A stretch of DNA of 42,641 nucleotides from Xenococcaceae cyanobacterium (lineage in GTDB: Bacteria > Cyanobacteriota > Cyanobacteriia > Cyanobacteriales > Xenococcaceae). The notes below the pieces were generated by a model. That model was not told the DNA's origin. It worked only from the letters and a program-made list of their open reading frames with translations, and did not search any database. This document shows, piece by piece, positions 4,138 through 8,879 of the stretch (position 1 is its first letter; every line of letters starts with the position of its first letter). Position numbers and translations under genes: made by a program. Location: positions 1 to 42,641 of the forward strand of contig DAXETX010000074.1 of NCBI GenBank assembly GCA_051155735.1, written 5' to 3'.

Positions 4138-5448
4138 ATGAAATTATCCAGAGAAGCTAATACAATATCTTGGCATACTTTTCTCGAACGAAAAGCCTTA
4201 GAATTAAAGCTTACTCCTAGCCAAACCAGAGTTTTCTTAATTCGGTTTGACCAGAAAAATTGGTTAAATAAAATAGAAGATATTTGGCAATTGAGTGATG
4301 TTAACAGTTTTGAGGCGTTTGTTAAACATTCAACTAATATTTATAAAATATTAAAACCCTATTGTCCAGAAATCAGTAAAGGTGCAGGGAATTTTGCGAT
4401 TGTTAGAGATTACCTCTTAACAGAATTTAAAAACTTACAACTAAAAAATGATTCATTATGCTTAAAGCATTATTCTGTTTTGTCTTCTGTAGAAACGGAA
4501 TGTTATCAAGCTATTTTGCAACCAGGTGCATTAATTAGAATTAAAGCACCAAGTAAGATGGGAAAAAGTCGATTATTAAATCAGATATTAGCTTATACTA
4601 GTGAGCAAGATTATCAAACGGTTCATATTAATTTATTACAAATAGAAAGAAGTAAATTTAATAACTTGAATGAGTTTTTGCGGTGGTTTTGCATATATCT
4701 TCGTGATGCTTTAAAACTTGAGATTAATCTTGATGATTGCTGGCATAAAGATCGCGGAAGTATGCTTAGTTGTACCAGGTATTTAGAAATGATATTACAA
4801 TATTTTGAGCAACCTTTAGTATTAGGTTTAGATGAAGTAGATCGTTTATTGAATTATCCTAATATTAGTCAAGATTTTTTTTATTTATTGCGAAGTTGGC
4901 ACGAAGAAGCCAATAATGATGAGCTTTGGGAACAGCTAAGACTAATTGTTGTTTATTCTACTGAAGACTTTAGTAGTTTAGATATTAATCAGTCTCCGTT
5001 TAATGTTGGTTTACCCATAGAATTAAAGTTTTTTACTCAGCAACAAGTAATAAAATTAGCAGATATCTATCAATTACATTTATCGACAAAAGAAATTGAA
5101 CAATTAATGCAGTTAGTTAACGGGCATCCTTATCTGATTGATTTAGCTATGTCTTATTTAGTTAATAATAATCAAATTAGTTTGAGTGAATTATTACAAA
5201 AAGCTCCGACTGATACAGGTATTTATAATAGTTATCTGAGACAACATTTAATAAAATTAAAAGCAAATAGACAATTATCTCAAGTATTCTTAAAAATATT
5301 AAATAGTTCTGAACCAATTCAGGTAGATACCCTTGTAGCTTATCAGCTTTATCGTATGGGTTTAATTAAATGGTCTAAAACAGGTAATACTGTCATCTCT
5401 AGTTGTGAATTATATAAACTGTATTTTCCCTCAAGACTAAAAAGTTAG
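4138..5448 (+). CDS. Cyanobacterial 'AAA-like domain' (AAA_35/STAND-type) P-loop NTPase without a repeat sensor. The N-terminal ~130-aa extension has a possible sigma-70 region-4/LuxR-like helix-turn-helix.
   Basis: 436 aa. Walker A-like IRIKAPSKMGKSRLL and Walker B-like LVLGLDEVD. Overall collinear with the N-terminal NTPase module of the downstream WD40 protein ([11 protein letters not shown] / IFLDEVD). N-terminal segment LERKALELKLTPSQTRVFLIRF. Confidence 0.65.
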   Translation: MKLSREANTISWHTFLERKALELKLTPSQTRVFLIRFDQKNWLNKIEDIWQLSDVNSFEAFVKHSTNIYKILKPYCPEISKGAGNFAIVRDYLLTEFKNLQLKNDSLCLKHYSVLSSVETECYQAILQPGALIRIKAPSKMGKSRLLNQILAYTSEQDYQTVHINLLQIERSKFNNLNEFLRWFCIYLRDALKLEINLDDCWHKDRGSMLSCTRYLEMILQYFEQPLVLGLDEVDRLLNYPNISQDFFYLLRSWHEEANNDELWEQLRLIVVYSTEDFSSLDINQSPFNVGLPIELKFFTQQQVIKLADIYQLHLSTKEIEQLMQLVNGHPYLIDLAMSYLVNNNQISLSELLQKAPTDTGIYNSYLRQHLIKLKANRQLSQVFLKILNSSEPIQVDTLVAYQLYRMGLIKWSKTGNTVISSCELYKLYFPSRLKS

Positions 5449-5489
5449 TAATTAGTAGTAGCTTATTTTTATAACAACTAATATGATAA

Positions 5490-8400: not shown

Positions 8401-8879
8401 ATCTTCTAGCTACACTTCAAGGACATCAAGATGCAGTCAGAACAGTTATTATTAATGGCAAACAAATTATTTCTGGTAGCGAAGATCGCACGATTAAAAT
8501 TTGGCATTTAGCCAAAAAAACCGTAGCAACTTTAGCTAAACATCATGCTGCGATTAAAGGAATTGCCCTTAGTCCAAACCAGCAATATCTAGCCAGTGTG
8601 GATGAGGCTGGTAAAATCATTCTTTGGCAACCCAATAACCACACTTGGGAATATCGACAAACCTTACAGGAATACGATAACTCTATCTGGTCGGTAGCTT
8701 TTAGTGAAGATAGTCAAACTTTAGCAACAGCAGGAGAAAATGGCAAAATCATTCTCTGGAGTTTAAATAATATTATTCAATTAAGCACTCTAAAATATGG
8801 TTGTAACTGGCTCGAAGACTATCTTCAACTTAATTTAGAAGTTAATTCACAAAAGCGAAACCTTTGTCAATTTGAGTAA
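5490..8879 (+). CDS. AAA-like (AAA_35/STAND-type) NTPase fused to a WD40 beta-propeller array of about 14 repeats. A coiled-coil and a predicted single TM helix sit between the NTPase and the WD40 part.
   Basis: 1129 aa. The N-terminus ([36 protein letters not shown]...[10 protein letters not shown]) is the hallmark of the cyanobacterial AAA-like family. A hydrophobic stretch [15 protein letters not shown] lies at about aa 447-461. From about aa 520 there are ~14 repeats of the GH-x-V-x(n)-S(A/G)S-x-D-x-T-(L/I)-K-(I/L)-W type (e.g. [36 protein letters not shown]). Confidence 0.85.
   Translation: [1129 protein letters not shown]

Follow-up and report, generated by a model that had tools for sequence, protein, structure and literature searches.

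In a Xenococcaceae cyanobacterium, two adjacent genes encode paralogous STAND NTPases of the AAA_35 family, one carrying a large WD40 array and the other a small domain with a helix-turn-helix (HTH) fold. We read them, with roughly even chances of being right, as a split STAND signalling switch that is made of two proteins from one operon, is probably transmembrane and probably has a transcriptional output. STAND and NLR proteins are usually regarded as single-chain cytosolic sensors. The pair described here points to a conserved two-protein version, in which a probable membrane-spanning sensor with an outside-facing sensor domain is accompanied by a sensor-less output paralogue. The window in which the pair lies is the whole stretch of 42,641 nucleotides that was analysed, and the features of the pair are:

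4138 to 5448, forward strand: gene 1, 436 aa, a type-1 AAA_35 STAND ATPase with an N-terminal, putative output domain and without sensor repeats
4138 to 4476, forward strand: N-domain of gene 1 (residues 1–113), five helices with an HTH fold like sigma region 4 or LuxR, without a Pfam model
4480 to 5427, forward strand: STAND module of gene 1 (residues 115–430), comprising nucleotide-binding domain (NBD), helical domain and winged helix
5449 to 5489, forward strand: intergenic gap of 41 nt without a terminator
5490 to 8879, forward strand: gene 2, 1129 aa, a type-2 AAA_35 STAND ATPase with a TM-like helix and 14 WD40 repeats
5523 to 6542, forward strand: STAND module of gene 2 (residues 12–351), Pfam AAA_35 with E 4.3e-35
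6825 to 6881, forward strand: hydrophobic TM-like helix of gene 2 (about residues 446–464), its hydrophobicity kept in 6/6 orthologues
7068 to 8762, forward strand: the 14 WD40 repeats of gene 2 (residues 527–1091), the presumed sensor, from Pfam WD40 and repeat delimitation

A reading of this DNA from its letters alone, here called the sequence-only reading, had described two co-directional genes 41 nt apart, each with an AAA-like P-loop module, and both open reading frames exist as described. Pfam AAA_35 (PF14516) matches gene 1 at residues 115–430 (E 1.8e-121, 405.5 bits) and gene 2 at residues 12–351 (121.5 bits), both above the gathering threshold, which is 27 bits. In gene 1, Walker A is PSKMGKSRL (GKS142-144) and Walker B LVLGLDEVD (DE232-233); the corresponding positions in gene 2 are GKS48-50 and DE142-143. 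G-K-S and D-E are invariant across 70 type-1 and 39 type-2 sequences, and the intact motifs of the two modules can be taken as a point in favour of activity. The succession of NBD, helical domain and winged helix in gene 1 is structurally similar to solved STANDs, with SSO1545-type and MalT-type proteins ranked closest. The outline given for the remaining parts was likewise borne out. Gene 1 has an extra N-terminal domain, for which an HTH had been suspected, and ends at the winged helix without any repeats on its chain, while gene 2 has just 11 residues ahead of its NTPase and some fourteen WD40 blades behind it. Searches against NCBIfam gave no match, and sequence and profile searches of the PDB with gene 1 and its N-domain returned nothing significant. 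Both genes belong to a family of thousands of members. Their NTPase modules share 25% identity, and classification by HMM splits type-1 from type-2 modules cleanly (scores of about 320–590 against about 60): the two are old paralogues from separable clades.

Evidence that these clades work together comes from their arrangement. An orthologue of gene 1 is followed by a same-strand orthologue of gene 2 in all nine independent orthologous loci with downstream sequence, which come from Pleurocapsales, one Coleofasciculaceae MAG and two Nostoc records, including a conjugative plasmid. The order of the pair is the same throughout, and its flanking genes change from locus to locus. The same adjacency, type 1 before type 2, recurs in seven non-orthologous pairs at six loci:

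L016: output CHAT-TIR, sensor GUN4 plus PG_binding
L018: a type-1 protein, sensor CHASE2
L020: type-2 partner truncated beside an IS1 transposase
L022: two pairs, sensors GUN4 and PBP_like_2
L023: output GGDEF, sensor WD40
L024: output HTH_VMAP-M9, sensor WD40

Type-1 outputs thus interchange between the HTH of the window, HTH_VMAP-M9, GGDEF, CHAT-TIR and EAD4, the last of which takes the N-terminal position in one close type-1 paralogue; type-2 sensors interchange between WD40, CHASE2, PG-binding and PBP domains, mostly extracytoplasmic in type. Because the adjacency recurs and outputs and sensors are swappable, the idea of a split between an output and a sensor paralogue, already voiced in the sequence-only reading, gains support from orthologous and unrelated loci alike. 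Against a hetero-oligomer of the two, a Rosetta-stone search found no fusion of gene 1 with gene 2; proteins with two AAA_35 modules combine type 1 with type 1 or type 2 with type 2.

The two genes are probably co-transcribed as one operon. No terminator-like site was seen between them, and among orthologous loci the gap measures 9–43 nt in five cases and 193 nt in a sixth; a promoter and terminator scan was uninformative, with site counts at shuffle level. The window is core chromosome, the neighbours of the pair are housekeeping genes, and no defence genes were found near it within the window. A TPM-domain gene adjoins the pair in the window and in 5/9 independent orthologous loci (6/13 of those fetched) and lies close to it in two more; the locus is partly syntenic across Pleurocapsales. 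Both genes had been judged AT-richer than their surroundings, which holds for gene 1 (GC 0.293) and the NTPase part of gene 2 (0.344) and fails for the WD40 part (0.407; window 0.381). We considered taking the low GC for a mark of horizontal transfer and rejected this: since gene 1 is lower in GC than its flanks in 5/6 orthologous loci, its composition does not indicate recent acquisition here, and the WD40 part does not fall below the average.

These observations bear directly on the reading first proposed for the pair, an antiphage or regulated-cell-death system of the NLR/Avs kind, in which the WD40 array would sense a cue derived from an invader and the N-domain of gene 1 would set off defence or suicide of the cell. 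Several relationships speak for it. The STAND fold is near those of CED-4, plant NLRs and Avs3/Avs5. NACHT, NB-ARC and Metallophos-Macro-CHAT proteins begin with the same N-domain, gene 1 is low in GC, and orthologues of the pair occur on the Nostoc conjugative plasmid. Other paralogous pairs bear CHAT-TIR or EAD4. The CHAT-TIR pair L016 lies on a Nostoc plasmid, flanked by restriction-enzyme genes and by a caspase-FGE gene, so conflict systems do fall within the range of the whole family. For the window pair, however, we consider this reading unlikely. Neither gene has an N-terminal enzymatic effector of the Avs/bNACHT type (nuclease, protease, SIR2 or TIR), the output domain having an HTH fold rather than that of a nuclease, protease or NADase, and the core-chromosomal locus is neither a defence island nor a variable region. 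No PADLOC model covers the NTPases, in agreement with the earlier remark that the family lies outside the defence catalogues: gene 1 has no match, and gene 2 only a WD40-driven one to the candidate system HEAT-ARM_XIII at residues 848–1049. The WD40 array is kept in length and sequence with its repeats not homogenised, the sensor, unlike those of Apaf-1 or Avs, is probably not cytoplasmic, and other pairs have plainly regulatory outputs (GGDEF, HTH_VMAP-M9). Two of the findings that the sequence-only reading had itself named as speaking against a conflict role largely apply: the pair appears fixed in related genomes within a family of thousands, and the N-terminus of gene 1 is an HTH instead of an enzymatic effector fold.

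What, then, does this N-terminal domain do? It has the tetra-helical HTH fold of LuxR/GerE or sigma-70 region 4, yet its sequence matches no Pfam family at E<=10, the LuxR/GerE, sigma-70 region 4 and EAD models included, and a profile of the domain found nothing significant among PDB sequences. An hhalign comparison with the N-terminal HTH_VMAP-M9 of a type-1 protein from Kamptonema showed no similarity, a weak test in that the target was one sequence. K63-H64-x-T66 is kept on the putative recognition helix. The near-neutral charge of the domain counts against sequence-specific DNA binding. Besides the proteins already named, the domain occurs on nSTAND1, nSTAND5 and AAA_35 proteins; it heads at least four STAND clades as well as effector-type proteins, and also stands alone in short proteins and in one with two copies. 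We thereby define an N-terminal HTH-fold domain that lacks a Pfam model and is common to several STAND clades. Being small, non-catalytic and fused to diverse NTPase cores and effectors, it shows one trait of an EAD, and its distribution resembles that of an adaptor as much as that of a DNA binder.

The DNA upstream of gene 1 offers two elements on which an HTH might act:

3987 to 4005, forward strand: conserved motif CAATCTCCAAAATATAGAA, a candidate promoter or operator, from the alignment of the region upstream of gene 1 in 10 loci
4028 to 4056, forward strand: three AsTrGAA direct repeats with an 11-nt period (ACTGGAAAAAAAGTAGAATAAAACTAGAA), a candidate operator that the HTH of gene 1 might bind, or else tandem -10 boxes

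The motif CAATCTCCAAAATATAGAA is conserved across the alignment of these 10 loci whatever gene stands upstream, and overlaps TAGAAT, which is compatible with a -10 hexamer. A two-repeat pattern derived from the second element has its sole site in the window at 4028 to 4056 (2 overlapping matches against 0.27 expected; at least 2 matches in 5/100 shuffles); in 12/15 loci it recurs roughly 100 nt ahead of the orthologue of gene 1. Where the TPM gene and gene 1 are separated, at L009 and L001, the direct-repeat element is duplicated beside each. TAGAAT occurs within the repeats, which may be nothing more than -10 boxes.

Instead of binding DNA, the N-domain could serve as a homotypic adaptor of the EAD kind, bringing to an activated STAND oligomer an effector whose gene lies elsewhere, for instance a Metallophos-Macro-CHAT protein with the same domain. 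Its small, non-enzymatic, helical nature, its near-neutral charge, its spread over STAND clades and effector-type proteins and its occurrence as N-domain-only and two-copy proteins would all fit the EAD logic laid out in PMC7159879. We nevertheless hold this for distinctly unlikely. Neither the window nor any of 25 loci, translated in six frames and searched by HMM, showed a second copy within about 10 kb, the Metallophos-Macro-CHAT locus included; Pfam EAD models do not match; and the conserved K63-H64-x-T66 and the conserved direct repeats upstream of gene 1 both point towards DNA. The output of the pair is probably transcriptional, through a presumed binding of DNA by the HTH.

The sensor side is carried by gene 2, where a linker of ~175 aa and a conserved hydrophobic TM-like helix lie between the NTPase and the WD40 array; both had been overlooked in the sequence-only reading. 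Pfam WD40 covers 12 stretches of the array (E 3.4e-127), and the 14 repeats delimited are enough for two 7-bladed propellers. Hypervariability or homogenisation of the array was considered and not seen: protein length (1122–1160 aa) and sequence (56–79% identity among non-Nostoc orthologues) are conserved, and neither repeat homogenisation nor a tandem repeat was detected at the DNA level of gene 2. The sequence of the helix diverges among the orthologues that keep its hydrophobicity. By analogy with paralogues that bear PG_binding_1, CHASE2, PBP_like_2 or Peripla_BP_6, all domains of extracytoplasmic type, at the same position after the helix, the WD40 sensor is probably extracytoplasmic. A TM-like helix is present in 63/107 type-2 homologues; its N-terminal flank has a net charge of +3.25, its C-terminal flank one of +0.78. 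The argument leans mainly on paralogues because in the orthologue group of the window the hydrophobic stretch is short (KD19 of 1.3–1.6 over about 15 residues) and the flank charges are ambiguous.

That same shortness and the balanced charges at its flanks would suit a WD40 array that is cytoplasmic as in Apaf-1, with the helix acting merely as a membrane anchor or oligomerisation helix and an intracellular ligand being sensed at the membrane. Canonical GH-WD repeats are typical of cytoplasmic proteins. Moreover, 44/107 type-2 homologues, some of them with WD40 arrays, lack the TM-like helix, and double type-2 proteins are C-terminally tail-anchored, which shows that the family does make use of plain membrane tethering. 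We regard this arrangement as decidedly improbable in view of the family-wide positive-inside bias, the extracytoplasmic-type domains that paralogues place behind the helix, and the strongly hydrophobic helix of the Nostoc orthologues (KD19 2.68–3.0). Finally, the notion that the two genes are functionally unrelated and adjacent by chance or recent tandem duplication, prompted by their being side-by-side paralogues, is effectively refuted, since 25% identity speaks for an ancient duplication and order and adjacency persist in the nine orthologous loci and seven non-orthologous pairs despite differing flanks.

In the split switch that we favour, gene 2 would be the receptor, with a cytoplasmic NTPase, one helix through the membrane and two WD40 propellers that probably face the periplasm or thylakoid lumen, and gene 1 the output subunit, a STAND module without a sensor but with an N-terminal HTH-fold domain. 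A ligand on the propellers would relieve the autoinhibition of the gene 2 NTPase. Nucleotide exchange on gene 2 could then nucleate a hetero-oligomer with the gene 1 NTPase, comparable to NAIP-NLRC4 and plant sensor/helper NLR pairs, and the oligomer would cluster or release the HTH domains and so change transcription. A possible target is the pair's own promoter with its conserved 11-nt-period direct repeats, another the divergent TPM/Band-7 membrane-protein operon.

More tentatively, and with a good deal of doubt, we suggest that transmembrane STAND pairs of sensor and executor may form a large, modular class in cyanobacteria, which would be the prokaryotic counterpart of paired NLRs. If so, the WD40, CHASE2, PG-binding or solute-binding domains of the type-2 receptor would pick up a cue from outside the cytoplasm, and the signal would cross the membrane by nucleotide-driven hetero-oligomerisation with the sensor-less type-1 partner. 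The interchangeable head domain of this partner would decide whether activation leads to transcription (HTH), to c-di-GMP synthesis (GGDEF) or to cell death (CHAT/TIR/EAD). The window pair would be a conserved, transcription-coupled member of the class, and its signalling principle would be distinct from those of two-component, ECF-sigma and Ser/Thr-kinase systems. Confirmation would mean that bacterial sensor/helper STAND pairing arose independently of plant and animal NLR pairs, would add a transmembrane signalling route in cyanobacteria, and would provide a testable function for thousands of genes annotated as "AAA-like domain-containing".

Among known systems, the archaeal MNS-clade STANDs SSO1545 (2fna) and PAB2304 (2qen) resemble the AAA_35 module in structure. 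The name 'Npun2340/2341 family' (Leipe et al. 2004) is used here as cited in PMC8195603; the texts searched gave no description of function, pairing rule, topology or output/sensor logic for the MNS clade or Npun2340/2341. Literature specific to AAA_35 (PF14516), Npun2340 or VMAP-M9 was not found in a search that included the 2026 STAND survey PMC13581612 without its supplement. The STAND transcription factors MalT, AfsR and GutR differ in that here sensor and HTH are split over two STAND paralogues, the HTH stands at the N-terminus and has no LuxR or SARP Pfam match, and the sensor is a WD40 array, probably across the membrane. Apaf-1 and Avs are set apart by their domains, as neither NB-ARC, NACHT, CARD, caspase, nuclease nor APAF1_C is among the Pfam matches of gene 1 or the best 25 of 48 families of gene 2, and by their layout, as the sensor here stands behind a TM-like helix; PADLOC Avs models match neither gene. 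Compared with the EADs (Kaur et al. 2020), the gene 1 N-domain is likewise small, non-catalytic, helical and N-terminal on STANDs and effector-type proteins, but has an HTH fold, no Pfam EAD match and no second copy found in neighbouring genes.

Similar in gene organization is the mobile bacterial nSTAND2 operon (Kaur, Iyer, Burroughs and Aravind 2021, PMC8195603). Its two genes likewise encode STAND NTPases that are paralogues of each other; they are predicted to assemble into a hetero-toroid, and one of the two bears effectors that vary. Those proteins are nearer to CR-ATPases and Dap3, and one partner has eroded NTP-binding motifs and GT4 or HEPN (PMC8195603). The pair described here belongs to another STAND family, AAA_35; Walker A and B are intact in both partners, and neither GT4 nor HEPN is among the Pfam matches of gene 1 or the best 25 of 48 families of gene 2. 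With NAIP-NLRC4 and RGA5/RGA4 the likeness is one of functional analogy, one STAND sensing and a neighbouring paralogue executing by hetero-oligomerisation. Those pairs are eukaryotic and cytosolic, are built on NACHT or NB-ARC modules and trigger death or immunity, whereas the cyanobacterial pair, whose interaction we infer, combines an executor without a repeat domain, an HTH output and a sensor that is probably extracytoplasmic.

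The window is a 42,641-nt contig from a Xenococcaceae cyanobacterium MAG, and a database protein from this contig matches gene 1 with 100% identity. Two co-directional genes lie where the sequence-only reading had placed them, separated by a gap of 41 nt in which no terminator-like site was found. The AAA-like NTPase module that it had assigned to both corresponds to Pfam AAA_35, and the array of about 14 WD40 blades on gene 2 was likewise recovered, WD40 models covering the C-terminal half of the protein.

4138-5448, plus strand: gene 1 (436 aa); residues 1-113, N-domain; residues 115-430, AAA_35 (Pfam, E 1.8e-121)
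5490-8879, plus strand: gene 2 (1129 aa); residues 12-351, AAA_35 (Pfam, E 4.3e-35); residues 527-1091, 14 WD40 repeats

Both proteins are probably active NTPases: each has Walker A (GKS) and Walker B (DE), motifs that do not vary among 70 homologues of the gene 1 type and 39 of the gene 2 type. The modules are STAND NTPases: in a structural comparison made with the predicted fold of gene 1, scores were highest against the archaeal ATPases PAB2304 (2qen, 20.7) and SSO1545 (2fna, 19.8), followed by the plant TIR-NLR WRR4A (18.1), CED-4 (18.0) and the group of ORC/Cdc6, Avs5, MalT and Avs3 (13.5-15), with alignments of about 290 residues that run through NBD, helical domain and winged helix. Identity between the gene 1 and gene 2 modules is only 25%, and group HMMs split all family members examined into two clades, type 1 (gene-1-like) and type 2 (gene-2-like), with scores of about 320-620 against their own clade and about 45-75 against the other. 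The impression that both genes are AT-rich holds for gene 1 (GC 0.293) and the NTPase part of gene 2 (0.344, window 0.381), but not for the WD40 part (0.407). The low value does not mark a recent transfer here, since gene 1 also has a GC below that of the flanking DNA in five of six loci with orthologues.

The pair is conserved as a unit. In all nine independent orthologous loci with enough downstream sequence, the gene 1 orthologue is followed by a same-strand gene 2 orthologue. These loci come from Pleurocapsa (Pleurocapsa sp. PCC 7319 and an uncultured Pleurocapsa MAG), a 5.2-Mb assembly, JGI and ENA metagenome contigs, a Coleofasciculaceae MAG, Cyanobacteria bacterium J06621_8 and J06648_1, Nostoc sp. 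FACHB-892, and the conjugative plasmid pNOS3756_2 of Nostoc sp. NIES-3756. The intergenic gap measures 9-43 nt in five of six cases and 193 nt in the sixth, and complete gene 2 orthologues have 1122-1160 aa. A Myxosarcina MAG (L001, 7724-9921) also carries the pair; there gene 2 ends after about residue 310, a DDE_Tnp_1 transposase gene lies directly downstream, and no WD40 part was found downstream of the shortened gene, as though the sensor partner had been knocked out naturally.

The flanking genes vary from genus to genus. In Pleurocapsales-like genomes gene 1 adjoins a divergent TPM-domain gene, which is accompanied by a Band-7 gene and either LemA or a 203-aa ORF; this holds for the window and five of nine independent orthologous loci (6 of 13 fetched), and in two further loci the neighbourhood is close to gene 1 without adjoining it. 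The window's 203-aa ORF (2047-2658, minus strand) is without a Pfam match, lies with TPM on one side and Band-7 on the other, at the site occupied elsewhere by LemA, and is conserved with 68-76% identity in two other loci (L001, L004). Its Band-7/SPFH neighbour (125-2011, minus strand) is unusually long at 628 aa, the SPFH domain spanning only residues 74-269; the Band-7 products near the pair in L009 and L010 have 272 aa.

A type-1 gene is also directly followed by a type-2 gene in six non-orthologous loci.

Non-orthologous type-1/type-2 pairs (locus; type-1 product; type-2 product)
L016, Nostoc sp. HK-01 plasmid1, 3933-11735; CHAT-TIR-AAA_35; AAA_35-TM-GUN4-PG_binding x3
L018, Planktothrix p1; AAA_35; AAA_35-TM-CHASE2
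L020, Gloeothece plasmid; AAA_35; truncated AAA_35, IS1 transposase gene just downstream
L022, Scytonema tolypothrichoides, 1-8823; two same-strand pairs 2.3 kb apart; type-2 sensors GUN4 and PBP_like_2
L023, Crinalium epipsammum PCC 9333, 4370-8073; AAA_35-GGDEF; AAA_35-WD40
L024, Kamptonema formosum, 4501-8733; HTH_VMAP-M9 (PF26355)-AAA_35; AAA_35-WD40

The paralogous NTPase pair thus stays constant, while outputs vary on one member and sensors on the other. This recurrence across unrelated loci backs the split arrangement, and the genomic evidence argues strongly for a functional partnership of type-1 and type-2 proteins. Pairing is common and not universal, since a type-2 gene does not follow directly on two of four annotated plasmid type-1 genes (L019, L021). 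Where one protein has two AAA_35 modules, these are of the same type (type 1 with type 1, or type 2 with type 2), so no fusion offers proof of contact between the types. Genes for an OMP beta-barrel protein (weak match) and a CyanoTRADDas_TM protein lie on the opposite strand between the two Scytonema pairs.

What might the variable parts do in our pair? The gene 1 N-domain, the presumed output, forms a separate five-helix domain of HTH fold (predicted structure, pLDDT 87). Even with the cut-off relaxed to E<=10, Pfam has no model for it, and the precomputed database annotation of the protein consists of PF14516 only. A profile search of 1.84 billion representative proteins returned 157 matches at E<=0.001, nearly all N-terminal once a minority of multi-stretch matches, in which the long fifth helix aligned inside large proteins, was set aside as spurious. 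Pfam on the scanned matches found the domain on NACHT proteins with NCC-H, NCAB1 and HEAT, on NB-ARC proteins with TPR or APAF1_C, on nSTAND1 and nSTAND5, and on calcineurin-like phosphoesterase-Macro proteins, sometimes with TPR and CHAT. These architectures mark it as a mobile "head" module of STAND proteins. As for possible DNA binding, it is near neutral in charge (mean pI 7.4), but K63-H64-x-T66 is conserved on its putative recognition helix. In none of 25 loci did a neighbouring gene carry a second copy, the rule for effector-associated domains (EADs). One 200-aa protein, P0241, consists of nothing but two tandem copies.

In gene 2, a linker of about 175 aa between NTPase and WD40 array, absent from the sequence-only reading, holds a hydrophobic helix at about residues 446-464. 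All six aligned orthologues keep this stretch hydrophobic, also where their sequences differ (KD19 2.7-3.0 in those from Nostoc), and such a helix follows the NTPase in 63 of 107 type-2 homologues of at least 560 residues. The flanks of the helix in type-2 proteins have mean net charges of +3.25 (N-terminal side) and +0.78 (C-terminal side), which fit an NTPase inside and a C-terminus outside. At the WD40 position, type-2 paralogues carry PBP_like_2, Peripla_BP_6/ANF_receptor, GUN4 and three PG_binding_1 after the TM helix (L016), or CHASE2 (L018), domains that normally work outside the cytoplasm. From conserved helix, flank charges and these paralogue domains we infer, with moderate confidence, that gene 2 encodes a receptor that crosses the membrane once and exposes its propellers to the periplasm or thylakoid lumen. 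Against this, in the orthologue group of the window the hydrophobic stretch is short and its flank charges are balanced, and some WD40-bearing type-2 proteins lack such a helix. Proteins P0126-P0135 combine two type-2 AAA_35 modules with a strongly hydrophobic, tail-anchor-like C-terminal helix.

Compared with the window protein, orthologues are 58-85% identical over the NTPase and 32-79% over the WD40 region. With the array conserved and no DNA-level tandem repeat detectable in it, it looks old and under purifying selection rather than a rapidly homogenizing or hypervariable sensor.

Upstream of gene 1 two elements stand out.

3987-4005: conserved motif CAATCTCCAAAATATAGAA
4028-4056: three AsTrGAA repeats with 11-nt spacing

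The two-repeat pattern has no other site in the window: 0.27 matches would be expected and two overlapping ones were counted, although 5 of 100 shuffles yielded two or more as well. In 12 of 15 loci this pattern lies some 100 nt ahead of the gene 1 orthologue, whichever gene lies upstream. In L009 and L001, TPM and gene 1 are 3-3.5 kb apart with other genes between them, and the whole element (3987-4056 in the window) occurs twice, once beside TPM and once beside gene 1 (L009 6746-6763 and 9892-9909; L001 2750-2767 and 6132-6160). This duplication hints that the divergent TPM/LemA/Band-7 operon shares its regulation with the pair, and it is compatible with an operator through which the gene 1 HTH would act on both operons. 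The repeats also contain TAGAAT and could be plain -10 boxes, so that we regard the operator as a lead and no more.

The analysis establishes the domains, folds, intact motifs and conserved pairing. In the most likely mechanism, gene 2 would act as a STAND receptor in the membrane, with gene 1 as a partner that lacks a sensor and bears the HTH. Once a ligand had bound the propellers, nucleotide exchange would be permitted and gene 2 would seed the assembly of a hetero-oligomer that includes gene 1; this would alter the availability or clustering of the HTH domain and, through its putative DNA binding, the transcription of target genes.

The pair had been proposed as a candidate conflict or antiphage system, and this claim fares less well. 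The window belongs to the core chromosome (Ffh, HemB, SufB, LysA, UppS, DacA, PDH-E1beta, ZnuABC), the output is not an enzymatic effector, and the sensor, a conserved one, probably lies outside the cytoplasm. PADLOC has no model for either NTPase, nor has NCBIfam; the sequence-only reading had expected no coverage by defence catalogues. The family does reach conflict systems through TIR, CHAT and EAD4 heads, the last on another close type-1 paralogue, and members occur in plasmid and restriction-enzyme contexts. The L016 pair adjoins a caspase-FGE-sulfatase gene, with type II and type III restriction enzyme genes on either side, a defence-island-like context for the two-gene design, and the N-domain also accompanies NACHT and NB-ARC proteins. 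These links keep a defence or cell-fate role in consideration, though we judge it unlikely for this pair. L023 and L024 indicate that the two-gene design serves ordinary second-messenger and transcriptional signalling too.

Elsewhere in the window, a low-GC stretch (22586-25320, minus strand) encodes a DSP-PTPase of polymorphic-toxin-system type (PTP-NADK / Tc-R-P), a Uma2-family putative endonuclease and a WcbI-TPR protein (GC3 0.18). A 150-aa ORF without Pfam match (18642-19094, minus strand) has the window's lowest GC3, 0.166, and sits in a local GC trough at 19-20 kb.

The searchable literature yielded no description of type-1/type-2 pairing, of transmembrane STAND receptors or of the N-domain. 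"Npun2340/2341", the name given in PMC8195603 for a STAND family of 2004 to which these modules may belong, hints that the tandem genes were noticed already then. The literature searched describes just one bacterial operon with two STAND paralogues, nSTAND2 (PMC8195603), which differs in belonging to another family and in having one inactive partner. Functionally, our pair would resemble a MalT-type STAND transcription switch, but split over two chains, and by analogy the sensor/helper pairs of NLRs.
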